A stretch of DNA of 64,000 nt from Parcubacteria bacterium C7867-001 (GTDB lineage: Bacteria; Patescibacteriota; Minisyncoccia; Phycocordibacterales; Phycocordibacteraceae). The translations under genes were made by a program, and so were the position numbers. The stretch is from the NCBI GenBank assembly GCA_001189095.1, contig LFCK01000001.1:149251-213250 (forward strand), given 5' to 3'. The notes under the pieces are model-generated. The model saw only the letters and a list, made by a program, of their open reading frames with translations, searched no databases and had not been told where the DNA came from. Positions 6,870 to 61,075 of this stretch are shown piece by piece; the first letter of the stretch is position 1; the number at the start of each line of letters is the position of its first letter.

Positions 6870-6874
6870 CGCTT

Positions 6875-7189: not shown

Positions 7190-7191
7190 TC

Positions 7192-9794: not shown

Positions 9795-9822
9795 TTGACA
9801 AATTTAGTGGTTTGTGTATATT
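9795..9822 (+). promoter_or_regulatory. Near-consensus sigma70 promoter (TTGACA - 16 nt - TATATT)
   Basis: TTGACA at 9795-9800 and TATATT at 9817-9822. Predicted TSS around 9829-9831 (gggagaagg). Confidence 0.55.
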
Positions 9823-9829
9823 GGGAGAA

Positions 9830-10370: not shown

Positions 10371-10404
10371 TGCTAAGCTGCCCGACGGAAGAAAGGAGAA
10401 CGAC

Positions 10405-10701: not shown

Positions 10702-10727
10702 GTTCCAGTTTTCAGAAAATAACGGGC

Positions 10728-10800
10728 GCCGCGTAGCGGCGCCCGTTTTCTAAAACCTCTAAAATCGAAGTTTGTTAATTACGGGCGCCGCTACGCGGCG
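10728..10800 (+). terminator. Two copies of the same 9-bp-stem GC hairpin (gggcgccgc-NNN-gcggcgccc) 52 nt apart in inverted orientation, each followed by a T-tract
   Basis: 10728-10748 has loop gta and 10780-10800 has loop tac. The second is the exact reverse complement of the first. Confidence 0.6.
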
Positions 10801-10820
10801 CCCGTGTTATTTTTAGCGTA

Positions 10821-12646: not shown

Positions 12647-12656
12647 TATTTTCTCC

Positions 12657-45039: not shown

Positions 45040-45057
45040 GCGGCAGGATATACAAAT

Positions 45058-45131
45058 TGGGAGATCGTCTAATGGTAGGACAGCGGCCTTTGAAGCCGTG
45101 AATCTAGGTTCGATCCCTAGTCTCCCAGCCA
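45058..45131 (+). tRNA. tRNA-Gln (anticodon TTG), CCA encoded
   Basis: Acceptor tgggaga/tctccca (U1-A72). Anticodon loop ctttgaa. T-loop ggttcgatccc. Ends ...cagcca. Confidence 0.9.
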
Positions 45132-45303
45132 GCTTATGCTAAGTCAGGTGACTGACACGCATAGCTTCTCCGCCCCGTCACAGCATACCGGCTGAGAGCC
45201 GTATTCAGACAGAAAAGACCGCTCCGAAAGAGCGGTCTTTTCTGTTATCAATATTCAAAATATTAACTAGCAAAGACAGAGCAGTAGCTGGTATTATAAG
45301 GCT

Positions 45304-45876
45304 ATGTCTCTAGAACAATACTCCATTTTTCTAACTCTCGGCCTCTTTGGAATGTTTGGCTTAGTAGTCATAAGTGCTGTTCTATATTTTTTGATTCCTA
45401 AGGTGCGTAATCACATACGTTCGCACAGCTACGCAAACTTCCTTGCGGCGATCGGTCTCATATCAGTAGCATCAATCATAGGAGCTCTTACCTATCAGCT
45501 CGTGTACCTGACTCCGGTCTGCGAACTCTGCTGGTGGCAACGTATTTTCCTTTTTCCAATAGGCGTCATTGCCGCAGTGGCATTATGGTACAAGACCAGA
45601 GAAGCGCACGTTACAATCGCAATCCTCTCAGCTATAGGACTTTTCTATGCCTGCTACCATTACTACTATCATTTCCAAGGGCTGGTTCTCGGAAATACGC
45701 TCTCGCTCCCATGCTCTTTCGTGGGTCTTCTCCCTGCGTGCACTAACTCGCCGATACTCACTTTCGGCTTTGTAACGATTCCATTCATGGGCATCCTTGT
45801 ATTTTCCAGCATGCTGATATTAGCTGCCTTTGCCCATATGAAAGCTAAACGTGACGCTAAGCCAAACACGGTATAA
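45304..45876 (+). CDS. Disulfide bond formation protein DsbB/BdbC family
   Basis: Four TM helices. First Cys pair in PVCELCWWQRIF (compare BdbC PCVLCWYQR) and second pair PCSFVGLLPAC. Confidence 0.7.
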   Translation: MSLEQYSIFLTLGLFGMFGLVVISAVLYFLIPKVRNHIRSHSYANFLAAIGLISVASIIGALTYQLVYLTPVCELCWWQRIFLFPIGVIAAVALWYKTREAHVTIAILSAIGLFYACYHYYYHFQGLVLGNTLSLPCSFVGLLPACTNSPILTFGFVTIPFMGILVFSSMLILAAFAHMKAKRDAKPNTV

Positions 45877-45885
45877 TCTTTACAT

Positions 45886-46545
45886 ATGAAAATGAACTCG
45901 ACTGCATGGTGGGTTATTGGTGTGCTCGTGGTGGCAGGAGGCCTCATATTCTTATCCAATATGCTACGCACGGCGTCTACTCCTTCAACAGAAGAGGCTT
46001 CAGAGGTGCTTACGCTTGTAGCGGATGACCACAAGAAAGGGGCAGAAGACGGAAAAGTTGTCCTTGTTGAATATCTCGATTTTGAATGTGAGGCTTGTGG
46101 CGCGTACTATCCTGTTGTTAAACAGATGGAAGAGGAATTTGGGAACCGCGTGACATTCGTCGCAAGGTATTTTCCTCTTCAGGGACACAGGAACGGCATG
46201 ACTGCAGCACTTGCAGCTGAGGCAGCGGGTCGCCAGGGAAAGTTCTGGGAGATGCACGATCTTATGTATACTCGTCAGAAGGACTGGGGTGAAAAGCAGG
46301 TTTCGACTCCAGAAGTATTCGAGGAATATGCACAAGAATTGGGGCTTAACATGGAGCAGTTCAAAACAGATGTTGCGTCAGCTTCTGTAAAGGAGCGGGT
46401 AGAACGAAATCTTAACCAAGCAATTGAACTCAAACTTCAAGGAACACCCTCGTTTTTCCTTCAGGGAAAGAAAATTGCGAATCCGCAATCGCCAGAAGCA
46501 TTTAAGGCACTTATCCGGGCAGAGCTCGAGCGCGCTGGCTCATAA
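45886..46545 (+). CDS. DsbA/BdbD-like thiol:disulfide oxidoreductase (thioredoxin fold, CEAC active site), membrane-anchored
   Basis: N-terminal TM helix. VEYLDFECEACGAYYP active site. Thioredoxin-fold spacing. Confidence 0.75.
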   Translation: MKMNSTAWWVIGVLVVAGGLIFLSNMLRTASTPSTEEASEVLTLVADDHKKGAEDGKVVLVEYLDFECEACGAYYPVVKQMEEEFGNRVTFVARYFPLQGHRNGMTAALAAEAAGRQGKFWEMHDLMYTRQKDWGEKQVSTPEVFEEYAQELGLNMEQFKTDVASASVKERVERNLNQAIELKLQGTPSFFLQGKKIANPQSPEAFKALIRAELERAGS

Positions 46546-46566
46546 GTATCAGTATCAATCTTTATT

Positions 46567-47307
46567 ATGGACAAAGAAACACACATCGCCGCATCTACCG
46601 AATCTAAGCTCTCAACGCCAGTCGCCATACTTCTCGGCGCGCTCATTATCGCCGGAGCGGTACTCGTAACGAAGTACATGCCCGCGCCAAACAGCGCAAA
46701 CGTGGCGGCGCCTGGACAGCCTCAGGCTCAATCTGCAAATCTTGAAGCAGTGCGTCCGATAGGCGCGGAAGATCATATTCGTGGGAATCCCGATGCTCCT
46801 GTAAAGGTAGTCATGTATTCAGATACTGAGTGTCCATTCTGCAAGCGTTTCCATAACACCATGCAGGAACTTATGAGCACCTATGGTGCAGAAGGTAAAG
46901 TCGCATGGGTATACCGTCATTTCCCGCTTGACCAACTTCACAAAAAAGCACGCAAGGAAGCAGTCGCTAGCGAGTGCGCCGCAGAGCAAGGAGGTAACGA
47001 TGCTTTCTGGGCATACATGGATCGCATGATGGAGATAACCCCTTCTAACGATGGTCTTGACTCGGCGGAGCTTCCGAAGATAGCGGCGTTCATTGGACTT
47101 GATGTGACGAAGTTCAATGCATGTCTTTCCTCAGACAAATACGCAAAGCGCGTGCAGGACGATGCGGACAATGCGCTTAAAACAGGGGGTCAAGGAACTC
47201 CGTGGAGTATCGTTATTGGACCAAACGGGAAGAAGTACGAGCTATCAGGGGCGCAACCAATCGACGCAGTACGTCAGCTGGTTGATATTGCGCTAGCAGA
47301 TAAATAA
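46567..47307 (+). CDS. DsbA-like thiol:disulfide oxidoreductase (CPFC active site), membrane-anchored
   Basis: VVMYSDTECPFCKRFH active site. TM anchor near the N-terminus. Confidence 0.75.
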   Translation: MDKETHIAASTESKLSTPVAILLGALIIAGAVLVTKYMPAPNSANVAAPGQPQAQSANLEAVRPIGAEDHIRGNPDAPVKVVMYSDTECPFCKRFHNTMQELMSTYGAEGKVAWVYRHFPLDQLHKKARKEAVASECAAEQGGNDAFWAYMDRMMEITPSNDGLDSAELPKIAAFIGLDVTKFNACLSSDKYAKRVQDDADNALKTGGQGTPWSIVIGPNGKKYELSGAQPIDAVRQLVDIALADK

Positions 47308-47311
47308 CCGA

Positions 47312-47845
47312 ATGAAAGAGACTCTTGCTAAGGTCTTCAAAGAAACCAGAAGCAAGATTATTGCGACAGGTTCAATGTTAGTACTTTTCAGTGCCATCGC
47401 GCTTGTTCCAAATGCCGGGGTGTTGGGACAGGTGTTTGGCTCGTCAGTGCCATTTGCTCAGAAGGTAGCTTTTTCCTTTACGTTGCTTGGCTCTCCAGCA
47501 GCCAATGCAACTATGTTCGGTTTCGTTGCAATACTTGTAAGCATCTTCCTTTCGGGTGTGGTTATCGCGCTTGCAGTCTATGCCTTTAGCAAGCGTACGG
47601 AGAATGTGGGCGCGATGGGTGTATCAGGACTTGGCATGGTATCTGCGTTTATCGGCATCGGATGCGCGTCCTGCGGATCGCTCCTTCTGTCAGCTCTCAT
47701 TCCTATCTTGGGTATAGGGGCGTTTGTAAGCATCTTGCCGCTCGGCGGGCTTGAATTCAGTATTCTTGGTGTAGTCCTCTTGCTAGTATCGATCTACCTA
47801 CTTCTTATGCAGATAGCGAAACCGAGTGTGTGTGCTGTAGCATAG
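47312..47845 (+). CDS. Polytopic membrane protein with intramembrane CxxC (GIGCASCGS)
   Basis: About 5 TM helices. Directly downstream of the Dsb genes on the same strand. Confidence 0.5.
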   Translation: MKETLAKVFKETRSKIIATGSMLVLFSAIALVPNAGVLGQVFGSSVPFAQKVAFSFTLLGSPAANATMFGFVAILVSIFLSGVVIALAVYAFSKRTENVGAMGVSGLGMVSAFIGIGCASCGSLLLSALIPILGIGAFVSILPLGGLEFSILGVVLLLVSIYLLLMQIAKPSVCAVA

Positions 47846-47852
47846 ATATAGT

Positions 47853-48725
47853 ATGAGCAAGCATTCGCACGACAGCCAGGGAAACATTAAAATAGCGCTC
47901 TTTCTCAATATCTGTTTTACGATAATTGAGCTTATCGGAGGTCTTCTCACAAATAGTCTCGCCATTCTCTCGGACGCACTTCACGACTTCGGAGATACCA
48001 TCGTTCTCTCGCTTGCGTGGTATGCCGAAAAGAAATCTAAACAGGGTCCGGATGAGAAGCGCACGTATGGATATGCCCGTCTCTCGGTATTCTCCGCACT
48101 AGCGTCAGGAGCAGTCTTGATCGGCGGCTCTCTCTTTATCGTCTCACAAGCTATTCCTCGTCTCTTCAATCCTGAAGCAGTTAATGCGCCTGGAATGATG
48201 ATTCTCGCGGTGGTTGGAATCGTATTTAATGGCATCGGCGCATACCGCCTGAAGAAGGGAAAGGGCATAAGCGAACGAGTACTTTCCTGGCATCTCTTTG
48301 AAGACGTGTTCGGATGGACTGCGATACTCATCGGTGGTGGGTTGATCTATCTCTTCGATCTGCCCATCCTCGATCCGATACTCACGATTGGCTTTACGCT
48401 CTTCATTCTGTGGGGTGTGATTCGCTCAATGGGAGAAGTGAGCAATATTCTTCTTGAAGGTGTGCCAGACCGGGTGAACCTGAAAGCTCTTAAGAACGAC
48501 ATTCAGGCATTTGAAGGAGTATTGGGTCTGCATGACGTACATGTTTGGTCTCTTGAAGGGAAGACGAACGTTCTCAGTGGCCATATCGTCATCAATCCTC
48601 AAAGTGTAGATGAGGGACGAGCTATACAGCAGAAAATAAAAGTGATGCTTAAGGAAAAGCATGATATTGAGCACGCCACCATCGAACTTGAGACGAATGG
48701 AAGCTGCGAAGGAAAACCTTGTTAG
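47853..48725 (+). CDS. Cation diffusion facilitator (CzcD/ZitB-like) metal efflux transporter
   Basis: His-rich N-terminus, TM core with LSDALHDFGDTIV (CDF signature), C-terminal cytoplasmic domain. 290 aa. Confidence 0.85.
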   Translation: MSKHSHDSQGNIKIALFLNICFTIIELIGGLLTNSLAILSDALHDFGDTIVLSLAWYAEKKSKQGPDEKRTYGYARLSVFSALASGAVLIGGSLFIVSQAIPRLFNPEAVNAPGMMILAVVGIVFNGIGAYRLKKGKGISERVLSWHLFEDVFGWTAILIGGGLIYLFDLPILDPILTIGFTLFILWGVIRSMGEVSNILLEGVPDRVNLKALKNDIQAFEGVLGLHDVHVWSLEGKTNVLSGHIVINPQSVDEGRAIQQKIKVMLKEKHDIEHATIELETNGSCEGKPC

Positions 48726-48909
48726 ATACTCTTTAAAGCTCTTACCTAAGCCATATTCTAGTCCACACTTCTTCATAAAAACATCATTGACCATGGTGCT
48801 ACCCACGCTATACTAGTAGTACTGGTTAGATACGGTTGTACTCAAGAAAAGCCTATATAGGCTTTTTTGTATTATGAAGAAACGCTGAACGTCCCTTCGC
48901 TTTCCTATA

Positions 48910-50004
48910 TTGCCTTCAATCTTTTTCTCCCGTTCTAAAGCTAATGCTAAGAAGCGCGGTACATACAAAGTTTATAGTTCGGTAGCAGCGGTTTTCGCTC
49001 TATCCTTTTTTATTCATATTGTGTCGCCGCAGTCTGTAGACGGCATTTTTCCTTTTCCACATACAGCACACGCTCAATCTGACGGCGAGGGTGGCATGAT
49101 TCATGACCCAACTATTGACCTGCTCGAAGCTGCCGTAAATTTCGACCCCAATCCAAACAAGGGTGACCATGAAATGGAACTCGCTGGAGGTATAGCACTC
49201 TTGCCTCACGGAGATATTCCGGAGGGCGAAGTCGGGGCATTAGACTCGAAAGCTTCTTCACCAAACAAAACAGGTATTGCAATCTATACCGTTAAGAAAG
49301 GTGACTCGCTCTCAGAGATTGCAGAGGAGTACGGTGTGTCTACAAAAACTATTCTGTGGGCGAACGATATACGAGATGCAAGCACTATTGGTATTGGAGA
49401 CGAGCTCATTATTCTTCCAGTCACAGGTGTTCAGCATAAAGTAGTGAGAGGGGAAACACTTCAATCTATCGCCAAGAAGTACGGTTCGGATGTAACTGAT
49501 ATTGCGCTCTACAACGGCATTAGCGAAAGCAAGGGTCTTATCGCAGGTTCCGAGATCATTGTCCCGGGCGGCGCATTCCCATCAGCTTCTCCAAAGAGTG
49601 TGGCAAGCACCGGTTCATCTAAGAAAAGTACTGCTTCAGCAAAGTCTTCAAGTACCTCTTCCTCATCAGGCAAGTTTGGGAACCCTCTCCCTGGTGGAGC
49701 TATCACGCAGGCAAATCATGGGTACAACGCCGTAGATATAGATGGTGAAACAGGAGACCCTATTTACGCTTCGGCAGGTGGTACGGTCCTTGTTGCTAAA
49801 GGAAGTGGCTGGAATGGTGGATACGGGAATTACGTAGTTATTGAACATGGAGGGGGAGCACAGACGCTCTATGCACACATGTCGAATGTTGCTGCGTCTG
49901 GCTCAGTATCTAAGGGTGATGTTATTGGGTACGTAGGAAATACAGGCAAGTCCACTGGGTCTCATCTTCACTTCGAGGTGCGAGGAGCAAGTAATCCTTT
50001 ATAA
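48910..50004 (+). CDS. LysM-domain M23 metalloendopeptidase
   Basis: Two LysM repeats (YTVKKGDSLSEIAEEYGVS...; HKVVRGETLQSIAKKYGSD...). M23 core GYNAVDIDGETGDPIYASAGGTV...HMSNVAASG...GNTGKSTGSHLHFEV. Confidence 0.8.
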   Translation: MPSIFFSRSKANAKKRGTYKVYSSVAAVFALSFFIHIVSPQSVDGIFPFPHTAHAQSDGEGGMIHDPTIDLLEAAVNFDPNPNKGDHEMELAGGIALLPHGDIPEGEVGALDSKASSPNKTGIAIYTVKKGDSLSEIAEEYGVSTKTILWANDIRDASTIGIGDELIILPVTGVQHKVVRGETLQSIAKKYGSDVTDIALYNGISESKGLIAGSEIIVPGGAFPSASPKSVASTGSSKKSTASAKSSSTSSSSGKFGNPLPGGAITQANHGYNAVDIDGETGDPIYASAGGTVLVAKGSGWNGGYGNYVVIEHGGGAQTLYAHMSNVAASGSVSKGDVIGYVGNTGKSTGSHLHFEVRGASNPL

Positions 50005-50030
50005 GCTTGATTTCAATCGGTATTTTTCTG

Positions 50031-51359
50031 TTATGCGACCGTTATTTTTTTATCTTTCAGAAATAGTTTGGTCTTGAGACATGAGAGCATCTCTCGCTTC
50101 TCGAATATCGTTCCTTCTTTCAGCAGGTACTTTGCGTAGTTCCTGATATCCACGTCTGGTGTTTGAACATCCTTCTTGTGTCCCAGCACACCCACTCTAA
50201 ATTTGTTGAATCGTGCTAGTTCTTGCTCTATCCGCGAGTGCATTCCTAGCTCATCCAGACTCAGTGTGTCCATAAGCTCCACCAGCCCGTCTATAAGTAG
50301 AGTCTCGTTGATATAGGGATTCTGGCATTCATCCCTACCTATCTTGCTACAGAAGTAGTACACATGCCGATTCACCCCTCCATCTTTAAGCTTCTTAAAC
50401 TTCTCGTCAGCAGTAATTCCTGAGGTGCAGTACCCGCATCGAATCAGCTTCGTGAAGGCGAACTCTTTACTCTCGGTTTTCGGTACGTACTTCTGGTCTA
50501 AGGCAACCTGCACCTTGTCGAACAGTTCTTTATCAATGACTGGGCTATGTCGTCCCGTGTACCAGTTACCACTCCCGACAGGGTACTCAAACTCCCCATA
50601 GTAGTACGGGTTCCGTAATATGAGGTAGATGTTTGCGAGCACGAGCGGTTTTCCGCGGTGCGTTTTGAATCCAGTATCCTCGAGCCATCGGTGTAGCTTT
50701 CTTCCGCTCCATTGTTCGTGCGCGACTTTCTCATACATCTGCCGAATCACATGTCCTCGCTTCGGATCTATTCTCGACTGGCATTTCTTATCAACATTCT
50801 TCTCATTCAAATAACCCGTGGGTGCGACTCCTGGTCGAAGTCCCATCTCACACCTCGTGCGAAGTCCACGTTTTACGTTCACCGCCTTGTTGTCATTCTC
50901 GAGCTTTGCCTGACTTCCTAGAATCATCAATAGAAACTTCTCATTCGGATTATTGGTGAATCGCTGTCCGTAGGTGCGTATTTCTACCAACTTCCCCTGA
51001 TCCATCAAATCCACCACCGACCCTAAGTCCCCAGCATTACGCGCCAGACGGTCGGGTGCCCACGTCAGGATGCCGTTGTACTTACCCTCACGAAGCTCGG
51101 CGAGCATTTCGTTGTATATCGGTCTTTGTCCAACCTCCTTAGAGGAGTGCGATTCTCGCTTGGTCTCTATTATGGTCAGTCCATCCCGCTCAGCTAAATT
51201 CAACATCTCCTTAACTTGCGATTCTATTGATAATGCCTGCTTATCCTCGGCTTCCGTCGATTTCCTCGCGTAGAGGCAGTATTTGATGGCTACTGCCTCT
51301 ATAAGAGGGACAGGTCTCGAAACCCCTTGTTTACGCTCACTTATTGCTATTTGTGTCAT
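50031..51359 (-). CDS. Large serine recombinase (resolvase-domain plus recombinase/zinc-ribbon domains)
   Basis: Catalytic AIKYCLYARKSTEAEDKQALSIESQ (Y-A-R-x-S-T serine motif), a later recombinase domain and a Cys cluster (CGYCTS...C). Start placed at MTQIAIS. The ORF track extends to 51518 but would overlap the divergent gene. Confidence 0.8.
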   Translation of the reverse strand: MTQIAISERKQGVSRPVPLIEAVAIKYCLYARKSTEAEDKQALSIESQVKEMLNLAERDGLTIIETKRESHSSKEVGQRPIYNEMLAELREGKYNGILTWAPDRLARNAGDLGSVVDLMDQGKLVEIRTYGQRFTNNPNEKFLLMILGSQAKLENDNKAVNVKRGLRTRCEMGLRPGVAPTGYLNEKNVDKKCQSRIDPKRGHVIRQMYEKVAHEQWSGRKLHRWLEDTGFKTHRGKPLVLANIYLILRNPYYYGEFEYPVGSGNWYTGRHSPVIDKELFDKVQVALDQKYVPKTESKEFAFTKLIRCGYCTSGITADEKFKKLKDGGVNRHVYYFCSKIGRDECQNPYINETLLIDGLVELMDTLSLDELGMHSRIEQELARFNKFRVGVLGHKKDVQTPDVDIRNYAKYLLKEGTIFEKREMLSCLKTKLFLKDKKITVA

Positions 51360-51516
51360 ACAACCACATTGATGACGCCGAACCCCATACGAGTCTAGAG
51401 CGGCTAAGACGCGTTGGAGTTGGCAGAGTCTGCCAGAGATTACTCTTTGTGTAGGCTGTAAATCAGGAGTAAAATGAAGCAAATGAGGCAAGCAAAAGTA
51501 AACGTATTTATTACAC

Positions 51517-52125
51517 ATGCAAGACGATCCATTTCTAGGAACTAAGGACGGGCTTAGTGTCCTAGGTGGAGAAGTATCTAATTTTTACCAATTAGGATTT
51601 GGTCAACTTGATATCAGCGAAGAGGAAATTAGTAAAGCTGGGCGATTGATACATGTTTTGTCGATTATAAAGCTTGAAGGATTACGTCCAGAAAAGTATC
51701 CCGCGAAGGGTGTAACGAATGATCATCACAGGCATTTACAAGGTGCATTATTCGCTTTTGGAACTGAAGGAGTTAATCACGAATGGAGAGAACACTCCGC
51801 ATCATCTATACGAGAAATGATTTCAGGCTTTGCTTCGTCTGAACTGGAATTTAATGAGAACGTAAGTAAGTATGGGACTAATCAGAATACTAATTCAGAT
51901 GAACTTAAAAAGATAGAATCGGCTTGTAAAAAAATAAAGAAGTACTACCAATTTTTTACTGGCGTAACACATCATCAACAGGCAGCCATTACTAATGGAT
52001 TCCGTCAATTAGAAGATTTAAGTGCAGAAAATGAAAGATGCTTGAGCGTCGATAGTTTTAAATTAGTGTTCAAACATTTCTTTATTGATTTGAAGAAAAT
52101 CATTACAGTATTTCCAGACCTATGA
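51517..52125 (+). CDS. Hypothetical protein (202 aa), translationally coupled to the next gene
   Basis: ATGA overlap with the 52122 start. No recognisable motif. AT-rich codon usage typical of the island. Confidence 0.5.
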   Translation: MQDDPFLGTKDGLSVLGGEVSNFYQLGFGQLDISEEEISKAGRLIHVLSIIKLEGLRPEKYPAKGVTNDHHRHLQGALFAFGTEGVNHEWREHSASSIREMISGFASSELEFNENVSKYGTNQNTNSDELKKIESACKKIKKYYQFFTGVTHHQQAAITNGFRQLEDLSAENERCLSVDSFKLVFKHFFIDLKKIITVFPDL

Positions 52126-55064
52126 AACAGCTTCAATTACATCGCAAAATAGATGAGTTTTTGAAAGCAGGAATTGCAACCGCGTCTGTTGATGTTGCGC
52201 AAGGGTTTATTCATGGTAACGAAGACTCAAAGCGGTATTTCTTTGCACAGGCAAATGAGTCTTGGCTAAGATGGTTCTTCGATAATGGTCTCTTTGAGGA
52301 ACTTAAGAAAAAAGCCGAAGATCCGACTAAGTACGGATACCGTCTTTCAGAACTTGAGTATCTAACAAGAATGGCGGATAAAGAGCCTCAGACTGTAGTG
52401 GATATTATTCTTTCCATCTCTATCACCAAGGACACCTTCAATCCTGAGGTAATAGATAGATTTTTCTGGATTACAGGACTACTGCCAATCACTCAAATAA
52501 AACAGATTCTACCAAAGATTCTCTCTGAAAATTGGTTGTTGCTGATGTCACCATTTAGTAAGTCTGGATACGAGTATCAGAAGATGGTCGAGAAGCTAAG
52601 TGAAGCTAAGGATTATGACGCTCTCCTTATTCTCACTCAAATCATTCTCACCGTTCGTGCAAAAGAAGAGTTCGCTGACTCGGAACGCTTTTTCATATCG
52701 GATAAATTGTTCTACCTTGGCGATATCAACGCTACGGGTATATTTGATGTAATCACAAATACTGAGAATCCAAAGAAAGAGGAGTTTTTGAAGGTTACCC
52801 TAGACACCCTCGCGATAGTTGTTGATTTGGGTAAAGAAAGAGAAGAGACTGTCTTTGATAAAACGGAACCGTTTTATTTACTCGATGTCGATATATTTGC
52901 TCTTGAACTTGATACGGGTAAGCGGTCTCATCTAAGAGAAGACATTCAAAATCTTGTTGCAACAGCTAAAGTTCTTGTTCGCTCTACAATCGGCTCTCTC
53001 TGTGAGAACGAGTTAGAAACAAGGCGAATATACGATACATATATTGCGACCCTGCCAGATAGTCTTACTTGCTGGAGATTGAAGCTCTACTCGATTACTC
53101 GTTGCCCCGAGGTCTTTAAAGTTGAAATCAAAGAGGCGTTATTCCGCGCATTCAATGTGGGAGAAAGATATTTTGAAATCGATGGAGGTGCCGAGTACCA
53201 TAGAGGTCTCATTGCTGGTTTTGGTGCACTTGATGATGCGACAAAAAGAGAGTATGTCAGCAAAGTCATTGAATATTACGGCGCTACTTTAGACGATAAG
53301 GATCGAGAGGGGTGGAGAAAGAGAGATGGTCTAGAGATATTAGGCTATATCAAAACTTATCTAACTCCAGAAGAATTCACAATCTCTGAACCAATCTTGG
53401 GAGTTATACCTACGGGTGAGGTTGTTGTACCACATCCGTCAGTCGGAAAAGTCACTAGTGGAATGGTACTCCACAAATCACCGTTTAACCCAGCAGATAT
53501 TACAATCGACGAACTCATTAATCACCTTAAAACTGACTCAACACCGAAAGCACTTAATGAGCAGTACAAGAATGACGATTTCCTCAGCCCGCGCGGAGCT
53601 GAGGGACTTAGTGATGCAATAAAAGAAGATTTTAAAATACGAAGAGTTGAGTATTTGAGCAATCTCAATAAGTTCTTTGACCGTGATGCAATTGACCCCG
53701 TGTATGTTTATGGACTTCTTCGTCAGGTAGAAGACATGCTTCGAGCAAAAGAAGCATTTAGTACTACTGAATATCTTCAGTTAATAAGCTTCTTTACTCT
53801 CATCGAACAATCTGGAACAGAGGTCGAATTTGAGCCAGCAGAGGAAAGACCTTACTGGGCTGACTGGATAACTGTGCACAAATCTATGGCAGATGTGTTA
53901 CTTGAGATTCTTGCACTAATGAAAGATTCCCAGACATTCAAAGATAATAGAGCACAAATATTCTCCTTGGTTAAATATCTTCTTTCCATCAAGAGTAGCC
54001 CTGATGCAGAGGACGATAAACGAGAATCAAATGAGCCAGCTCATGTAGCCATCAATTCCGTGCGTGGCCAGGCGTATAGAGCGTTCGTACAATTCACCTA
54101 TAACGAAGGAAATAAAACATTGTCGGAGGACGTAAAGACTCTCTACGAGCATGTGTTGGCTACTGATAGCTCAAACGCAGTCAGGTTTACGATAGGTCAA
54201 TTTTTGGCATCATTCTATTTCCGCGACATCCCGTTTATTACAAGTCTATTTCCAAAGCTATTCCCGAAAGCAGAAGCCGGTAAAGAAAAGGCTTACTTCG
54301 CGACATGGGAAGGGTATCTCGCGAGCTCGCTATACAAAGAGCTTTTTGAAGCACTTAGGGAATATTACGAATATGCAATAAACATCGATCCAGAGACGTA
54401 CCCTGATCGGAAATACCTCAAAGGATTAGATGAAACTCTTGCTGTCCATATCGCACTTGCGTACGCGCACTTCGATTTCAACATAGGTGATCCTTTGTTT
54501 GATCTATTCTGGAATACTGCTAATGAGACCCGTCATTACGAGTTCGTGTCATTTGTTGGGCGAACTTGTATCACTCGAAGTCAGGCTGGCGATGCTTGGT
54601 TTGCTGAAAATAATGTAAGCAAAGAAAAGCTCATTGAGTTCTGGAATTGGATTATTGCTACAGATATTCCGATTGAATCAAAAGCGTTTTCGGGCTTTGG
54701 GTTCTGGATAAATCCTGACAAGGAAATCATTGATGAGAAGATACTCATCCAAAACCTTTCAACTACTCTTGAAAAATCCGAGGGTGAGGTTGATTGGGAT
54801 TACGGTCTAACCCGTAGAATAAAAGTATTTGCTGAAATTGATCCAGAAAATACGCTCGAAATAATTCGACACTTCTTGTTGCAGGGTAACGAACTGAATT
54901 CGCATAGACGAGCACCTTTATTCAGTATTGATACTGAAATCAAAGAAGCTCTCGAGATTATCTATACGAACGAGCGACTAAAACAGGGTGTCGAAGACCT
55001 CATCAATCTTCTCATTGAAAGGGGTAGTAGTGTCTTCTGGGGGCTCAAAGACATCCTCAAATAG
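52122..55064 (+). CDS. Large hypothetical protein (980 aa, predicted alpha-helical, no recognisable catalytic motif)
   Basis: Single uninterrupted ORF. No Walker, HEPN, PD-(D/E)xK or zinc-finger motifs visible by eye. Weak hairpin (agggc ttcgcaa gccct) after the stop. Confidence 0.6.
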   Translation: MKQLQLHRKIDEFLKAGIATASVDVAQGFIHGNEDSKRYFFAQANESWLRWFFDNGLFEELKKKAEDPTKYGYRLSELEYLTRMADKEPQTVVDIILSISITKDTFNPEVIDRFFWITGLLPITQIKQILPKILSENWLLLMSPFSKSGYEYQKMVEKLSEAKDYDALLILTQIILTVRAKEEFADSERFFISDKLFYLGDINATGIFDVITNTENPKKEEFLKVTLDTLAIVVDLGKEREETVFDKTEPFYLLDVDIFALELDTGKRSHLREDIQNLVATAKVLVRSTIGSLCENELETRRIYDTYIATLPDSLTCWRLKLYSITRCPEVFKVEIKEALFRAFNVGERYFEIDGGAEYHRGLIAGFGALDDATKREYVSKVIEYYGATLDDKDREGWRKRDGLEILGYIKTYLTPEEFTISEPILGVIPTGEVVVPHPSVGKVTSGMVLHKSPFNPADITIDELINHLKTDSTPKALNEQYKNDDFLSPRGAEGLSDAIKEDFKIRRVEYLSNLNKFFDRDAIDPVYVYGLLRQVEDMLRAKEAFSTTEYLQLISFFTLIEQSGTEVEFEPAEERPYWADWITVHKSMADVLLEILALMKDSQTFKDNRAQIFSLVKYLLSIKSSPDAEDDKRESNEPAHVAINSVRGQAYRAFVQFTYNEGNKTLSEDVKTLYEHVLATDSSNAVRFTIGQFLASFYFRDIPFITSLFPKLFPKAEAGKEKAYFATWEGYLASSLYKELFEALREYYEYAINIDPETYPDRKYLKGLDETLAVHIALAYAHFDFNIGDPLFDLFWNTANETRHYEFVSFVGRTCITRSQAGDAWFAENNVSKEKLIEFWNWIIATDIPIESKAFSGFGFWINPDKEIIDEKILIQNLSTTLEKSEGEVDWDYGLTRRIKVFAEIDPENTLEIIRHFLLQGNELNSHRRAPLFSIDTEIKEALEIIYTNERLKQGVEDLINLLIERGSSVFWGLKDILK

Positions 55065-55378
55065 AGCTGTTGGTAAGAGGGCTTCGCAAGGCCCTATATC
55101 TAAGCTAAGGTTCTAAAAGGTAGCGCAATTTGCTATCATAGTCCTTGTACAACAAAGACCTAACCTCTAGAAAACGCTTAGTTTCCTAGAGCATGGTCGG
55201 AATAACAAAACCGCTACAGTATAGAAGGCTCCTCGTCAGAGTCACTGTAGCGGTCGTGTACTCGAAAGGGTATATGGGTTAGGCCGAAAGGTCTGATCGC
55301 AATGGCGGGGAGCCTTCTGTCCCACGACTCTAGGCTCCCTGCTACTTATTAGCAGAAGCTAAAACCGCTACAGTGCAT

Positions 55379-56302
55379 ATGAATAAAAGTATACAAATAG
55401 GCGTATTCGCCTTAGGGATATTTATATTCCAAGCAACCAACGTTCACGCAACTGACTATAACTACCTGCCTCCCGATGTTCTCATCAAACAGCAGGAAGC
55501 GCAGTCAGCTCTTGAGTACCGACTGCAAAAACTAGAAGCATCCGTTTCGAGCGATTCGTCTGCATCTATTGCGAGCCTCAAGTCTCGTATATCCCAACTC
55601 GAATCAGAGCGCACAACGGAGAAAAACTATATCTCAGGAGTGTATGCTCAGAGTGGTATTGCCAATCAGCTCGAAGCTAAGTTAGCTGAGATTGATGCGA
55701 AATACGACTCCCATATAAGTAGCCTGAAGTCACAGTTATCGAAACTCGAGAGTTCAAGTTCAAGCCAGTCAAACAACGAGTCAGAGATCCAGTCCCTAAA
55801 GCTCCAGATTGCCCAGCTCAAGGATAAGATCGCCACTCAAGAACTTCAGGTCAGTGAACAGGCGCTCGAAAAGTATCAAACAAAATACGAGTACTCAGAT
55901 GCAGAAGTGTACGAGGTCTTTACCTATATAGATGCACTTGCTCTCCAAGACTCATCCAAGCTGTTCCAGCGCATCAAAGTCAATAATCCAGAAGTAGCGT
56001 CTCGGGTTGTCGCTTTCTACAACCAGAAGTACCCACACGGGAAGCCGGGCACTGCAATTAACGATGAGTACCTCGCTTCGCTTCCAAAGACAACGGCTCC
56101 CACGCCTACAAAAACTCAGGCTGGAGTAGCACCAACTGTTGTACCGAAAGAGGTAGCAACTACCGCGAAGGATTCTGTCCCAGCAGAATGGCAGATCCCT
56201 CCCACTCCTGAACCAGTCATCACTCCACCAGTAGAACCAAAGCCAACGTTCATTCAGAAAGTAATGAGCTTCTTTAGTCGATGGTTTTTCGGAGGAAAGT
56301 AG
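55379..56302 (+). CDS. Secreted coiled-coil protein with Pro/Thr-rich C-terminal region
   Basis: Signal peptide MNKSIQIGVFALGIFIFQATNVHA. Heptad-like Ser/Leu/Gln repeats. PTPTKTQAGVAPTVVPKE...PPTPEPVITPPVEPKP tail. Confidence 0.6.
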   Translation: MNKSIQIGVFALGIFIFQATNVHATDYNYLPPDVLIKQQEAQSALEYRLQKLEASVSSDSSASIASLKSRISQLESERTTEKNYISGVYAQSGIANQLEAKLAEIDAKYDSHISSLKSQLSKLESSSSSQSNNESEIQSLKLQIAQLKDKIATQELQVSEQALEKYQTKYEYSDAEVYEVFTYIDALALQDSSKLFQRIKVNNPEVASRVVAFYNQKYPHGKPGTAINDEYLASLPKTTAPTPTKTQAGVAPTVVPKEVATTAKDSVPAEWQIPPTPEPVITPPVEPKPTFIQKVMSFFSRWFFGGK

Positions 56303-56642
56303 TAGTTGTCCACAGCCCATCTTGGGACTAGGTTTTAAATTTCCCTTAAAACATAAAGGATTTTTACAAGGGCTTTCTAATGTTCAAAGTTAGAGACCAG
56401 TGTCTGTATCATTTTTGTGATAGCGTTAGCTCTAGAAGCACCAATCACATCAGACCTGATTCTGTGAGCCTAAGCCACTCGCACAATTAAATAAGCCAAT
56501 AAGTAAATCGTGACTTTCTCTACTTGTAGAGAAAGGTATTTCGATTTCTTTGCGGTTCGTCGAAAACCCACCAGAGAGTCGAAGTTAAACTTCGGAAATC
56601 TGGTGGATTTTTGCTTCTAATTACTTAGCTAATTAGAAAGAC

Positions 56643-57971
56643 ATGAACAAGGAAAACTTGAAGATCGAGTACGTAGCCATTGATCAGTTGAATGTGAACA
56701 CGCAGAATCCCCGTAAGTGGAGTGAAGAGCAGAAGAAACAACTCAAGGAGAGTATCAAGCGGTTCGGAAATGTTGATCCGATAATCGTAAATACCCACGA
56801 AGAGCGGAAGAACATTGTCGTAGGAGGACACTTCAGGCTAGAAGCGTGCAAGGAGCTTGGGTACAAGAATATGCCCGTGGTATTCGTGAACCTCACGCCT
56901 AAAAAGGAAGAGGAGCTCAACCTGCGCCTTAACCGCAACCAAGGAGAATTCAATCTTGAGATGCTCGCTAAATTCGACAGCGCAATGCTCCTTGATATCG
57001 GGTTCGACTCGGAAGACATCGATGAGATATTCCCGTCAGTAAAGCACGACCAAGAATTCAATCTTCAGGACGAACTCGACAAGCTCGATATCACGGTCGA
57101 AGCAAAGAAGGGTGAAGTGTATGACCTCGATGGCTCGCGCCTCATGATTGGCGACTCAACCATCGAAGCAGACATGCTGAAACTGATGGGAGATAACCGG
57201 GCGGATATGGTGCTAACAGATCCTCCCTATATCTTGGACTACCTCAAAGGCAAAGGTCGAGGAAAGGATGGTGCAACAGTGGGTTTCGGTTCCAAGAAGA
57301 ATCGTAGGTACCTTGAGACTGATATTCTACCAGACAACTTCAGCGAGTTGTGGATGGCAAATGTCGCCAAGGTCCAGAAGCCTGACTTCTCAATTATCAT
57401 CTTCGAGAACCCAAAGAACCTGCGAACTATTTGGAACGCACTTGAAGCGCACTGGAAGTACCGTAATACGATAACGTGGCATGTGCCCAATCGTATGCAA
57501 GGATTCTCAGCCGCGAATAAGTTCTTCAATAAGACGGACATTGCGCTCGTAGGAGCGAAAGGTGATGTTGCGCTCAACCTAGAACCAGAAGAAGAGCCGT
57601 TCCAGAACGAGTATGAGAACGCGATCTTCGCCACTTCAGGAAAGGCGCACTTCGAGCCGTATGAGAAAGGAAAGAAGATATGCCCGACTGACTTCATCTC
57701 GCACCCAGCGGCAGATAAGAAGTCGTCAGGTCAGGAGATTATCTTCGGCACTAAGCCCATTGAACTCCTCGTTCCGTATCTCAAGGTACTCACCAAGCGA
57801 AATGACCTCATCCTTGAACCGTTCGGTGGAAGCGGGAGCACCCTCATCGCCGCAGTGAAGATGGGTCGCCGGTGCTTCGTCATGGAGAAATCCCACGTCT
57901 ATGCGGAAGTGATTATGAACCGCTGGGAAAAAGAGACAGGCAAGAAGCGTAAGAAAGTCGTAACAGTATGA
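56643..57971 (+). CDS. ParB-like nuclease domain fused to a DNA methyltransferase (N6-adenine / N4-cytosine type)
   Basis: N-terminal ParB-N-like region (YVAIDQLNVNTQNPRKWSEEQ...VGGHFRLEA). Catalytic DPPY motif (VLTDPPYILDY). C-terminal SAM-binding FGGSGST. Confidence 0.8.
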   Translation: MNKENLKIEYVAIDQLNVNTQNPRKWSEEQKKQLKESIKRFGNVDPIIVNTHEERKNIVVGGHFRLEACKELGYKNMPVVFVNLTPKKEEELNLRLNRNQGEFNLEMLAKFDSAMLLDIGFDSEDIDEIFPSVKHDQEFNLQDELDKLDITVEAKKGEVYDLDGSRLMIGDSTIEADMLKLMGDNRADMVLTDPPYILDYLKGKGRGKDGATVGFGSKKNRRYLETDILPDNFSELWMANVAKVQKPDFSIIIFENPKNLRTIWNALEAHWKYRNTITWHVPNRMQGFSAANKFFNKTDIALVGAKGDVALNLEPEEEPFQNEYENAIFATSGKAHFEPYEKGKKICPTDFISHPAADKKSSGQEIIFGTKPIELLVPYLKVLTKRNDLILEPFGGSGSTLIAAVKMGRRCFVMEKSHVYAEVIMNRWEKETGKKRKKVVTV

Positions 57972-58354
57972 CGATAAAGGAACGAACGAAGAAGGATAAA
58001 GCACGCGTACTGGAACACTTGAAAGCGATACCGATTATAGAGGTAGCGTGCAAGAAGGCGAACATTGCTCGCGCCACCTACTACCGCTGGCGTACTGAAG
58101 ACCCTGACTTCCTTAGGGACTCAGAAGACGCACTCGAAGAAGGTATCGCGCTCATTAATGATATGACCGAATCCCAGCTCATCGGTCTCATTAAGGAGAA
58201 GAAGTTCCAAGCGGTGCAATTCTGGCTTCGGCATAACCACCAGCGGTTCCTGCTCAAGGAGAAGGAACACTCGCTGTTGAAGCCCCGAAAGGATGTTGCA
58301 CTCTCACGAGACCAAGAGAAGTCACTCAAGAAAGCATTGGCTATGTACGCATAG
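57968..58354 (+). CDS. HTH protein, terminase-small-subunit-like
   Basis: ATGA overlap with the methyltransferase gene. ACKKANIARATYYRWR helix-turn-helix typical of phage terminase small subunits or transposase HTH domains. Confidence 0.5.
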   Translation: MTIKERTKKDKARVLEHLKAIPIIEVACKKANIARATYYRWRTEDPDFLRDSEDALEEGIALINDMTESQLIGLIKEKKFQAVQFWLRHNHQRFLLKEKEHSLLKPRKDVALSRDQEKSLKKALAMYA

Positions 58355-58375
58355 CTCTCTTTCAGAAGAACGCAT

Positions 58376-59434
58376 ATGAAAAAAGAAACCATACTCCAAA
58401 CCATCATCACTGACAGTGCCGTCAGACGAAGACTCGTGAAAGAATCACACGAGGCGTTTTGTAGTATCTATCTTTCGCACCACATCATGCACCCGTATGC
58501 GTTCTTCCATAAAGAGATGTTCCGCATGACTGAACGAGAAGACGAAAAGCTCTCTGTCGTTATGGCATTCCGTGGCTCAGGCAAATCAACGATTCTGAAC
58601 CTCTCCAATACCATCTGGTCTATCCTCGGTAAGCACCAGAAGAAGTTTGTGCTTATCGTGAGTAAATCAAAGCTTCAGTCTCAGGCGCACTTCCTCAACA
58701 TTAAGTCAGAGCTTGAAGACAACGAGCTACTCAAGCAAGACCTTGGTCCATTTCGGGCGAGTACCACGGAGTGGGGCGCATTCTCTATCGAGCTTCCACT
58801 CTATGGCGCGAAGATAATGTGTATCGGCTCGCTTCAGAATATCCGTGGACTGAAATACAAAAGCCAGCGCCCAGACCTAATCATCTGTGACGATATGGAA
58901 GATACACTCTCCGTGCAGGATGGTGAGACCAGATGGAATCTGTATGAATGGTTCTTGAATGAAGTGATGCCCATCGGAGACGAGAAGACACGAATCCTTG
59001 TGCTGGGAAATCTCGTTGGTAGAGTGTCCCTTATGATCCGACTCAAGAAGCTGATGATGCACGATAAATTGCAAGGCACGTACTACGCGTATCCGCTTCT
59101 TGATAACCACAACCGCATACTCTGGCCTCAACGGTATTCGATAGCCGAAGTGGAGAAACTACGTGATGCGCTCACTGATAAGGACGCACACAGAATGTAC
59201 CGACTCTTTGACCGAGACTATAAACTCAACATGTCCTGCGTACGAGATCCGCTTACCCCTATTCCATACGTATCTCATCCCGTCACCAATACCTCCACCA
59301 AGAAAGAAGACTTCCGCATAACCGCACCGCTCTGGGCGGTGGGCAATCGTGTCTTTGAGGACATGGAAAACATTGATGACCTCGACGGTTGGGACGAGGA
59401 GACGGTAGTGCCGAATGTGGGGCAGGAGTACTAA
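58376..59434 (+). CDS. P-loop ATPase, phage terminase large-subunit-like (apparently short or truncated)
   Basis: Walker A AFRGSGKST and Walker B-like DLIICDD about 100 aa later. 352 aa. No obvious nuclease domain. Confidence 0.5.
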   Translation: MKKETILQTIITDSAVRRRLVKESHEAFCSIYLSHHIMHPYAFFHKEMFRMTEREDEKLSVVMAFRGSGKSTILNLSNTIWSILGKHQKKFVLIVSKSKLQSQAHFLNIKSELEDNELLKQDLGPFRASTTEWGAFSIELPLYGAKIMCIGSLQNIRGLKYKSQRPDLIICDDMEDTLSVQDGETRWNLYEWFLNEVMPIGDEKTRILVLGNLVGRVSLMIRLKKLMMHDKLQGTYYAYPLLDNHNRILWPQRYSIAEVEKLRDALTDKDAHRMYRLFDRDYKLNMSCVRDPLTPIPYVSHPVTNTSTKKEDFRITAPLWAVGNRVFEDMENIDDLDGWDEETVVPNVGQEY

Positions 59435-59457
59435 TCATTGTCTGATAAAATACAGCA

Positions 59458-60195
59458 ATGGATTTTATCGTTATAGGGCTAGTAGCTTTCACTGCTTCCG
59501 CACTCACATTCTTTTCTGGTTTTGGATTAGGAACACTTCTCTTACCTGCATTCGCGATTTTCTTTTCAGCACCAATCGCTCTTACTGCAACTGGTATTGT
59601 TCACCTCCTGAACAATCTTTTTAAGGGAACGCTAGTACGAAAGAATGTTGATTGGCGCACGGTACTTCGCTTTGGACTACCTGCTGTCCCAGCTGCAATC
59701 TTGGGTGCATACCTGCTCACGTATTTAGATACTCGCATCGCAAGCATAGTCATTGGCGTGATACTTATTGCTTTTGCGGTCTTAGAATTCCAGCCGTGGT
59801 TTCAGCGACTGACATTCCCAAAGAAATATCTTTCGCTTGGTGGCGTAGCCACAGGATTTCTCGGTGGACTCTCGGGACAGCAGGGAGCACTACGTTCTAT
59901 GTTCCTACTGAAGTCAGATTTTGAAGCAGTGAAATACATTGCTACCGGAGTCTTCATTGCGATACTCATAGACCTTGCTCGGCTCCCAACTTATTTGCTC
60001 GGTCTAAAGAACGTTGCGTCTATAACCCAGCACGAGATTGCCCTTATCGAGTTTGGAACATTCTGTGCGTTTATCGGTGCATGGCTCGGAGCGAAGTACG
60101 TTAAGAAGACCACTATTGGTTTCATTCGATACATTGTTGCAGGACTAATGCTCTGTGTAGGTACCGCCCTTATCGTCGGACTGATCGGAGGTTAG
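59458..60195 (+). CDS. TauE/SafE (DUF81) family anion exporter membrane protein
   Basis: Two-fold repeated 4-TM architecture with Gly-rich motifs (FFSGFGLG ...GFLGGLSG). 245 aa. Confidence 0.7.
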   Translation: MDFIVIGLVAFTASALTFFSGFGLGTLLLPAFAIFFSAPIALTATGIVHLLNNLFKGTLVRKNVDWRTVLRFGLPAVPAAILGAYLLTYLDTRIASIVIGVILIAFAVLEFQPWFQRLTFPKKYLSLGGVATGFLGGLSGQQGALRSMFLLKSDFEAVKYIATGVFIAILIDLARLPTYLLGLKNVASITQHEIALIEFGTFCAFIGAWLGAKYVKKTTIGFIRYIVAGLMLCVGTALIVGLIGG

Positions 60196-60220
60196 GAACG
60201 GTACTTGTCTCGTATCTTCT

Positions 60221-60838
60221 TCATTTTCTCCTTATGTTTTTTAAGTCTTCCAGCATCTCTGCTTTTAACTTTCGTGACCACGCTTCAGCACGTTTCTTGT
60301 TATGCCTGTCGTACGATTTCCGACTTGCTGAGTATCGCTCAATTAGGGCAGGATTCTCTTTCTTCAAGAACAGGTACTCATAGGGAGTACCTGTTTCGTT
60401 CAAAATGATTCGAGGATGTAGCGTGCCCTCCTTTATATATTTCTTCGCAGTCTGATGTTTGATATCAAACCTGTATTTCAGACTCGACATTGAGAAGTAG
60501 CTATTTCGATGCAGGAAAATGTAGGTTGGTATCATTCCGTCTTTCACTGCCTTTCGGCAAAGAAGACAAGTCTGTCCGTACCAGTCATACCACCCGTTCG
60601 TCTCATCAATCCTGTTGCTACACACAAGACAGGTATATGTCCCGTCTACAGGGAAGCCGTCTGGTTCAGTCTTCAATCGCTTCTTTTTGATCGAGTCTTT
60701 CTTCGACATTTCCCATAAGAGGTCGAAGAAACCTACTAAATTCTGCGCACCCTCACGTGCGTCTTCGTCACTCATCTCCTCACCTTTCTTTCTAGATTCT
60801 TCCTTTAGTTGCTCTATAAGTTCATCGGATACTGCCAT
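60221..60838 (-). CDS. Hypothetical protein with CxxC...CxxC zinc-ribbon (205 aa)
   Basis: YTCLVCSNRIDETNGWYDWYGQTCLLCRKA. Lys-rich C-terminus. AT-rich. Confidence 0.45.
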   Translation of the reverse strand: MAVSDELIEQLKEESRKKGEEMSDEDAREGAQNLVGFFDLLWEMSKKDSIKKKRLKTEPDGFPVDGTYTCLVCSNRIDETNGWYDWYGQTCLLCRKAVKDGMIPTYIFLHRNSYFSMSSLKYRFDIKHQTAKKYIKEGTLHPRIILNETGTPYEYLFLKKENPALIERYSASRKSYDRHNKKRAEAWSRKLKAEMLEDLKNIRRK

Positions 60839-61075
60839 AGGTATCGTTGATTGGCTTGTAAGTGAGACACCGACTGATATCTCCCTTACAGTGTCTCATT
60901 TGTCTTTTTTCGTTAGAATACCCTTATTGTGCCTACGGGAGAGTAGACTGAGACGCATGGAAACGAGACAGTTTAATTCGCTCAGAAACCCTTACGGGGT
61001 CTCACTCGGGTAGGTTCGAGACTGAGTCAGTCAGCAAAATAAGCGCAGCATATTTTGCTGTGGAGAAGAACACGG

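Follow-up and report, generated by a model that had tools for sequence, protein, structure and literature searches.

A gene pair encoding a predicted Dsr1/Avs7-type sensor and a helical Arg/His partner as a candidate anti-phage system in a Parcubacteria bacterium

Results

Two overlapping genes beside a serine recombinase

The stretch of DNA analysed here, hereafter the window, comprises 64,000 nucleotides of Parcubacteria bacterium C7867-001 (assembly GCA_001189095.1, contig LFCK01000001.1, positions 149,251 to 213,250 of the forward strand). It contains two adjacent genes, whose products of 202 and 980 residues (KND51842.1 and KND51843.1) are both annotated as hypothetical, and which we examine as a candidate two-gene anti-phage system carried by a small integrative element (Table 1). 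A preliminary description of the locus, made from the sequence alone, had reported two open reading frames (ORFs) joined by an ATGA overlap, divergent from a serine recombinase some 157 bp away. The overlap was confirmed by the ORF list and by the sequence itself (...cctATGAaa...), in which the ATG of the larger gene at 52122 overlaps the TGA of the smaller gene (52123-52125). The divergent recombinase and the gap were likewise borne out, by its Pfam domains and by its start; its mechanical ORF extends to 51518, and the start at the residues MTQIAIS (51359) was the one adopted. For the 202-residue gene, the start is backed by homologues opening with an identical M-[EQ]-x-D-P. The overlap fits coupled synthesis of both proteins, and joint synthesis is to be expected because many relatives hold both parts in a single chain. 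A shared promoter region had also been proposed. The gap is real, but a promoter and terminator scan of 51200-55500 gave no signal above shuffled background, and both promoters are presumed to lie within the divergent region. The G+C content over the gene pair is 39-43%, compared with about 53-55% further upstream.

Table 1. Positions of the gene pair, of sites within it, of neighbouring features in the window and of LOOT RNA matches in related loci
Feature	Sequence	Position	Strand	Remarks
Large serine recombinase, 442 residues from MTQIAIS start	Window	50031..51359	-	Pfam Resolvase, Recombinase, Zn_ribbon_recom; PHROG 95 integrase, E 6.8e-60
Divergent intergenic region, 157 bp	Window	51360..51516	.	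Recombinase start (51359, - strand) to start of 202-residue gene
Gene for 202-residue helical R/H domain protein, KND51842.1 (ABA06_01115)	Window	51517..52125	+	ORF list, ATG start; presumed effector module
Invariant Arg99 codon of 202-residue gene	Window	51811-51813	+	
His152-His153 codons of 202-residue gene	Window	51970-51975	+	
Gene for 980-residue predicted alpha-solenoid sensor, KND51843.1 (ABA06_01120)	Window	52122..55064	+	ORF list, ATG start
C-lobe part of sensor gene, residues 482-847	Window	53565..54662	+	Aligns with Dsr1 residues 831-1162 (hhalign)
LOOT RNA (Rfam RF03000, listed as small RNA, sRNA)	Window	55157..55298	+	cmscan 50.4 bits, gathering score 46.4; 93 bp 3' of sensor stop
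ParB_N + N6_N4 DNA methyltransferase	Window	56643-57971	+	Pfam
Small-terminase-like (terS-like) helix-turn-helix protein	Window	57968-58354	+	Pfam
TerL-like fragment, 352 residues	Window	58376-59434	+	E 4.4e-65 to 495-residue L010 protein with Terminase_6C
LOOT match	L003	9043-9158		
LOOT match	L014	6942-7067		
LOOT match	L033	7036-7179		
LOOT match	L017	7325-7449		
LOOT match	L012	7585-7726		
LOOT match	L030	7820-7940		
LOOT match	L008	12321-12443		
LOOT match	L010	13428-13551	-	
LOOT match	L020	2580-2695	-	
LOOT match	L042	2694-2819		

Neither protein matched a Pfam or NCBIfam family at its cut-off. No AAA or STAND family or P-loop was detected in either (Pfam, NCBIfam), nor was a SIR2 domain (Pfam, NCBIfam, PADLOC), and the earlier statement that the pair lacks P-loop, nuclease, HEPN, zinc-finger and transmembrane (TM) signatures holds at curated thresholds; the maximum Kyte-Doolittle 19-residue mean of the 202-residue protein is 1.08. 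The AlphaFold2 model of the 980-residue protein contains helices only, as the preliminary description had anticipated. The same description had treated both proteins as unrecognisable orphans, which is correct in so far as no curated family reaches its cut-off, but profile methods reveal a relative, and homologues are numerous.

The 980-residue protein resembles the sensor of Dsr1 and Avs7

In its AlphaFold2 model (predicted local distance difference test score, pLDDT, 89.8), the 980-residue protein folds into two lobes separated by a low-confidence linker at residues 427-460. The PADLOC model for Dsr1 (defence-associated sirtuin 1; PDLC04166) matches residues 459-788 with an E-value of 4e-17, the match covering model positions 735-1047 of 1227 only. 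Among the 5027 PADLOC models, Dsr1 was the sole one to recur, with matches to 11 of 50 members of the sensor family (best E 5.5e-21); no other sensor model did so. A tblastn search of plasmids with the whole protein retrieved a 'SIR2 family protein' of Bacillus thuringiensis and several haloarchaeal 'ATP-binding proteins', aligned to residues 440-918. The former (WP_284559349.1, 1302 residues) is a bona fide Dsr1, as judged by its PADLOC score (E 1.3e-142) and a Pfam SIR2_2 domain at residues 99-252. When the sensor family profile was aligned with it by hhalign, the probability was 97.0% (E 8.8e-11, 317 columns), and the most conserved motif of the family, HVAINSVRGQAYRAF, lined up with SYILNSVKGQALRAV of the B. 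thuringiensis protein. Within this motif, INSVRG occupies residues 644-649, and the invariant N645-G649 correspond to nucleotides 54054-54068.

One of the haloarchaeal proteins, encoded on a Halocatena salina plasmid (WP_247996002.1, 1493 residues), carries an AAA_22/nSTAND1 domain at residues 180-340; we call it Avs7-like (antiviral STAND type 7) from this architecture. The hhalign comparison with this STAND ATPase gave a probability of 97.8% (E 9.2e-13) over 792 columns, with residues 76 to about 950 of the window's protein aligned to residues 598-1460. From the length of this alignment it follows that essentially the whole 980-residue protein would be the counterpart of the sensor that Avs7-like STAND proteins carry at their C-terminus. 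On the plasmid (NZ_CP096023.1; L064 1-1130 / L065 52-1365), the Avs7-like gene is divergent from a gene annotated as 'HEPN domain-containing' and lies beside transposases.

Fold searches returned generic HEAT/ARM solenoids only (karyopherins, CAND1 and HUWE1), and sequence searches of all Protein Data Bank (PDB) chains with both proteins and both family profiles gave nothing meaningful. The sensor family has at least 144 members in a single-sequence search, and its homologues keep their length, with 44-82% identity at full coverage. Together, the profile alignments and the model show the 980-residue protein to be a predicted free-standing, two-lobed alpha-solenoid, homologous nearly end to end to the sensor domain of Dsr1 and Avs7.

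The 202-residue partner carries an invariant arginine and histidine

The 202-residue protein was modelled as a helical bundle (pLDDT 85.1, predicted template modelling score, pTM, 0.82), and a direct search with it found nine close homologues only. Further relatives came from the larger protein: 44 of its 120 listed homologues are 1122-1188 residues long, with 150-215 extra residues at the N-terminus, and these N-terminal domains match the 202-residue family (hhalign 95.8%, E 7.9e-9). The shared domain, here called the R/H domain, has the core N-x-[DE]-W-x-x-[QH]-x-A-x-S-x-R-[ED], followed by H-H 50-70 residues on. Its profile retrieved 294 representative clusters from 1.84 billion representative proteins, 179 of them below an E-value of 1e-10.

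Among the 56 R/H domain matches longer than 280 residues, 55 carry the sensor body directly after the domain. The sole exception, P0255 (374 residues), places an FRG domain (PF08867, E 1.7e-16) before the R/H domain and lacks a sensor. Standalone forms consist of the domain only in 119 of 125 cases, whereas the remaining six have an N-terminal TM helix in front of it. To judge from these sequences, the R/H domain appears to occur exclusively as a companion of this sensor. Two proteins, P0130 (1313 residues) and P0201 (1293 residues), contain two tandem R/H domains and then the sensor.

The domain is highly divergent, and a few of its positions hardly vary. Across 184 aligned R/H sequences sharing less than 20% identity, Arg99 was present in 181 of 181 and His152 in 170 of 170, and His153, Ser97, Asn87, Trp90, Glu/Asp100 and Gln/His93 were each found in more than 87%. 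The conservation of Arg99, His152, Asn87, Ser97, Glu/Asp100 and Gln/His93 points to an active-site-like arrangement.

Comparisons with known enzymes gave two leads. The first, PF18165 pP_pnuc_1 (predicted pPIWI-associating nuclease), matches the 202-residue protein with 15.8 bits (E 0.011), below its gathering threshold of 26.3 bits, and recurs below threshold in 6 of 19 fused N-terminal domains (best E 0.014); we found no literature on this family, and with scores under the cut-off it serves as a lead, not as a classification. The same applies to a resemblance to HEPN RNases (Las1, Csm6 and the HEPN domains of Cas13). An assignment as a HEPN RNase was rejected: the Rx4-6H motif is absent, Arg99 and His152 lie 53 residues apart on different helices, and the family has no conserved histidine 5-7 residues after Arg99. 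The HEPN protein encoded near the Halocatena STAND relative shows no relationship to the R/H domain, with an hhalign probability of 0.1%, and the N-terminus of the STAND relative itself showed no profile similarity to the domain. More generally, none of the profile, fold and PDB searches that were run revealed similarity of the R/H domain to any known enzyme.

Partners are fused to the sensor, split from it or replaced

We examined 65 related loci drawn from metagenomes, GTDB species genomes, IMG/VR and plasmids (designated by L numbers where needed). The fused form was found in about 24 loci and the split form in about 30, and overall about 40% of the homologues are fusions with the R/H domain at the N-terminal end of the sensor. 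In nearly all of the split loci (n=30), the distance between the end of the upstream gene and the start of the sensor gene is -4 to +8 bp; in two it is -23 and +88. The tight spacing of the two genes is more than chance, because it recurs in 30 split loci and because about 40% of the homologues are fusions.

After one round of profile iteration, the upstream gene of most split loci proved to encode an R/H domain protein. The partner is a different one in a few loci: a CHAT protease in L012 (33.2 bits, cut-off 24), a CHAT-like protein scoring below the Pfam cut-off (18.3 bits) in L024, and a TM protein without an R/H domain in L003, L034 and L053. Partner and sensor also differ in their degrees of relatedness. 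Sensors that are 65-71% identical to that of the window are accompanied by a partner only 26% identical to the window's, or by a CHAT or TM partner, and the partners closest to the window's (61% and 53% identical) are paired with sensors that are only 48% and 43% identical. Because of this replacement and these discordant identities, the slot in front of the sensor behaves as an exchangeable effector slot, and the discordance appears to be the effector-shuffling pattern familiar from defence systems.

The sensor family is patchy and has defence genes among its neighbours

The sensor family was detected at 51 loci among 185,579 species genomes and is thus accessory and patchy. Nearly all of these belong to Patescibacteria, including Paceibacteria and Uhr-, Falkow-, Morani-, Woese-, Berkel-, Doudna-, Yanofsky-, Staskawicz- and Taylorbacteria. 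In three loci the sensor gene is split into two to three ORFs by frameshifts or stops (L020 4001-6944, L044 3992-6935 and L051 4001-6951), which suggests decay in some lineages, or assembly errors.

The association with defence islands and mobile elements was judged qualitatively. A type I restriction-modification operon adjoins the module in L001, and genes for an EcoRI methylase, a GmrSD/HNH protein and Fic proteins adjoin it in L009; in both loci the module thus has restriction-modification and toxin genes as neighbours, and neither a recombinase nor a terminase is close by. In L010 the vicinity includes a type IIG restriction-modification gene and HicA, and in L008 the module lies between serine recombinases, together with Prim-Pol. 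The only contig of the viral collection with a homologue (L062; IMG/VR UViG 2626541890_000001, 90-13186) encodes a fused form with 36% identity. There, just after a TerL fragment, genes for a PLD-nuclease/SNF2 helicase (1090 residues), an Eco57I/TaqI_C methyltransferase (1020 residues), the fused system and a HATPase_c protein (664 residues) stand in a row. About 200 bp 3' of the fused homologues in L009 (10764-10911) and L019 (7164-7311), we observed an S-adenosylmethionine (SAM) riboswitch aptamer (RF00162, 48.3 bits); the values of the two loci are identical, and they possibly come from the same organism.

The pair behaves as cargo of a small element in the window and in related loci

In the window, the pair belongs to an element of about 9.4 kb (50031-59434), made up of the recombinase, the pair, the LOOT RNA, a gene for a 309-residue coiled-coil protein, the ParB_N-N6_N4 methyltransferase and the terS-like and TerL-like genes. 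The element's gene set is found beside the pair in eight further related loci (L003, L004, L010, L012, L014, L017, L033, L034 and L038, where L034 duplicates L003), and the arrangement of recombinase and pair seen in the window was also found in L003, L004, L014 and L034. There are no capsid, portal or tail genes within the 9.4 kb. Because it lacks capsid and tail genes, this conserved small integrative element of Patescibacteria resembles either a satellite-like element or what is left of a cryptic prophage. As the pair occurs inside the element and also outside it, it behaves as cargo that moves independently too.

Discussion

Relation to known systems and a proposed mode of action

A common bilobed sensor of Avs7 and Dsr1, both of them host-killing defence proteins, is described in a preprint of January 2026 (PMC12803255). 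According to the same source, phage major capsid protein triggers Avs7 as well as Dsr1, EcDsr1 included, and is clamped between the sensor lobes; SeAvs7 undergoes ATP-driven tetramerisation; and the sensor also occurs without a nucleoside triphosphatase (NTPase) domain, behind N-terminal effectors as varied as NADase, nuclease, kinase, HEPN-like RNase, TM and 'unknown' (PMC12803255).

With Dsr1, the window's pair shares a homologous C-lobe (residues 482-847) that includes the NSV[RK]GQA motif, the lack of an NTPase, a variable module on the N-terminal side of the sensor and a location on mobile DNA. It differs in that the SIR2 NADase is replaced by the helical R/H domain, encoded in the window by a separate, overlapping gene, in an identity of only about 22-24%, and in belonging to a family found nearly entirely in Patescibacteria. 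The likeness to Avs7 lies in the alignment of residues 76 to about 950 with the C-terminal sensor of the Avs7-like Halocatena protein, and the two-lobed model with its low-confidence linker is consistent with the bilobed Avs7 sensor. Unlike Avs7, the pair has no STAND NTPase or P-loop, and its effector module is a different one that has been split off; since the STAND NTPase is absent, the ATP-driven tetramerisation of SeAvs7 cannot apply as such. The pair is thus neither Dsr1, lacking SIR2, nor Avs7, lacking the NTPase, and its predicted architecture fits the NTPase-free class of Avs7/Dsr1-sensor proteins (PMC12803255), with which it shares the order of effector module and sensor and the exchange of modules within the family (R/H, CHAT, TM). 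It departs from that class in that the module is often a separate, coupled gene, that the R/H domain has no annotated counterpart and that the family is almost confined to Patescibacteria. Relative to the effector classes described in the preprint, the R/H domain would appear to be new.

The interpretation that we favour, and to which we assign a probability of about 0.62, is that the two genes form an anti-phage system of the abortive-infection type, belonging to the Dsr1/Avs7-sensor superfamily and carried as cargo by a small phage-derived integrative element. An uncharacterised anti-phage system beside the recombination module was among the suggestions of the preliminary description, and this suggestion is now favoured by the homology of the sensor, the defence and mobile context and the exchangeable effector slot; the PADLOC search that it had recommended produced the match to the Dsr1 model. 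In such a system, the sensor would bind a conserved phage protein during infection. By analogy with Dsr1 and Avs7, this would most likely be major capsid protein, freshly synthesised and gripped by the two lobes. A conformational change or oligomerisation of the sensor would then activate the bound 202-residue module, which would go on to damage the cell or the phage.

In the fused homologues, the R/H domain sits at the N-terminus of the sensor, the position that the effector has in Dsr1 and Avs7. We favour an enzymatic activity for this module because of its invariant Arg/His site, and our best guess, offered with low confidence, is that it may be a metal-independent phosphodiesterase such as an RNase. 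Going one step further, the domain could represent an unrecognised class of immune effector enzyme, a new all-alpha Arg/His catalytic fold activated by an NTPase-free, capsid-sensing solenoid. This more ambitious proposal is a tentative one that we hold to be possible rather than probable; if true, the reduced genomes of Patescibacteria would have a minimal pattern-recognition immune system of their own, made up of two pieces.

Several points weigh against the interpretation of the pair as an abortive-infection system. The homology to Dsr1 and Avs7 is distant, with an identity of about 21-24%, and the match to the Dsr1 hidden Markov model passes the HMMER filters in only 11 of 50 family members. 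A PADLOC scan of six fused homologues gave no Dsr1 match, which we attribute to HMMER pre-filters acting on long, low-density alignments, given that those 11 members and the hhalign comparisons do show the relationship. The capsid trigger is drawn only from the analogy with Dsr1 and Avs7. Finally, a domain found only with this sensor would also fit an integral regulatory or oligomerisation domain.

Alternative explanations

This last point leads to the main rival, which retains a sensor system of the Dsr1/Avs7 type but makes the R/H domain an adaptor, autoinhibitory or oligomerisation domain, with the toxicity residing elsewhere (in a recruited host factor, a TM helix or the sensor). We judge it unlikely, and the other alternatives weaker. 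It would account for the restriction of the R/H domain, among the 294 representative clusters, to this one sensor and never to other sensor types, and for its lack of similarity to known enzymes, and the TM-helix variants (6 of 125), the tandem copies (P0130, P0201) and the FRG fusion (P0255) are arrangements typical of adaptor modules. However, one invariant Arg and one invariant His together with four near-invariant polar residues, at under 20% identity, would be unusual for a pure adaptor. The same position is held by CHAT-protease and TM-only partners without an R/H domain, so that coupling to the sensor does not require the domain, and as 119 of the 125 standalone forms consist of the R/H domain only, there is no other candidate effector in the locus.

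A role in the service of the mobile element itself would place the pair in superinfection exclusion, in counter-defence, or in packaging or hijacking by a satellite-like element that binds the capsid protein of a helper. The window and eight further related loci all have the pair in one and the same kind of small element, which speaks for such a role. If the sensor binds capsid protein in the way of Dsr1 and Avs7, it could in principle also divert the capsids of a helper. We nevertheless consider it improbable: the module is also found outside the element, beside the restriction-modification and toxin genes of L001 and L009, the replacement of the partner by a CHAT protease or TM proteins is a pattern of immune effectors and not of assembly factors, and the relatives Dsr1 and Avs7 are host-killing defence proteins.

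Slightly more improbable still is a role outside phage defence, in which the large protein would be an ordinary alpha-solenoid scaffold of the cell, a housekeeping platform for protein-protein interactions in Patescibacteria, and the small one its accessory subunit; the similarity to Dsr1 would then stem from repeat composition. The generic HEAT/ARM proteins returned by the fold searches, the absence of any curated family at threshold and the well-conserved length of the family (44-82% identity at full coverage) could be read in this way. A mundane repeat-protein family was also the outcome that, according to the preliminary description, would have spoken against a defence role, and it is not what we found, because the protein resembles Dsr1/Avs7 sensors specifically and not repeats in general: the specific, collinear profile alignments extend over 317 columns with Dsr1 and 792 with the Avs7-like STAND protein, and are thus long, the top motif is aligned with its Dsr1 counterpart, and Dsr1 alone recurs among the PADLOC models. 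The patchy distribution (51 loci in 185,579 genomes), the variable neighbourhoods rich in mobile and defence genes, the lower G+C content and the three decayed loci are equally at odds with a scaffold.

Structural or internal phage proteins of a cryptic prophage (tape-measure or internal core), which the preliminary description had named as an alternative, might be suggested by the terminase-like genes of the element and by the single IMG/VR contig with a fused homologue, but we regard them as very improbable, since the best PHROG matches (E 0.033 and 0.037, to families without known function) are not significant, no structural fold matches were found (the searches did not include the BFVD viral structure library), the element of about 9.4 kb has no capsid, portal or tail genes, the IMG/VR homologue sits among restriction-type genes, the two-lobed solenoid is homologous to immune sensors and the module also occurs in loci without phage genes.

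Significance for Patescibacteria

Patescibacteria (candidate phyla radiation, CPR) have tiny genomes with few recognised defences beyond restriction-modification. To our knowledge, their resistance to phages is largely unexplained, and their phages are poorly known. If the interpretation of the pair as an abortive-infection system is correct, these bacteria would share the capsid-sensing module of Dsr1 and Avs7, stripped of its NTPase and of the known effectors. How a bare sensor switches on a separate partner of some 200 residues thereby becomes a mechanistic question that can now be tested. The R/H domain, which has no known relative but an invariant Arg and an invariant His, may provide a new effector activity, and the fused, split, CHAT-linked and TM-linked versions form a natural series that provides ready-made material for experiments.

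The LOOT RNA and the wider low-G+C stretch

The LOOT RNA recurs in 11 of about 40 related loci scanned; 10 distinct loci besides that of the window account for 11 matches, as L034 duplicates L003. It lies 93-104 bp 3' of the sensor, on the same strand, in four loci, and elsewhere up to 3.5 kb away on either strand. In 7 of the 11 loci it co-occurs with the element of recombinase, ParB-methyltransferase and terminase-like genes, and because of this co-occurrence it probably belongs to that element rather than to the operon. More speculatively, the system could use it as a functional partner RNA or as a substrate. Its placement in the element gives the LOOT RNA a first genomic context here, relative to its bare listing as an sRNA in Rfam. 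In the window, a flanking direct repeat, AAAACCGCTACAGT, is present at 55207 and 55361.

The element forms part of a longer stretch of lower G+C content, which covers 16 kb of the window (45000-61000; 44-50%, compared with 52-59% elsewhere) and starts right after a tRNA-Gln gene (45058-45131). Besides the element, this stretch encodes two DsbA-like thioredoxins, a cation-efflux (CDF) transporter, a LysM/M23 peptidase and a TauE exporter.

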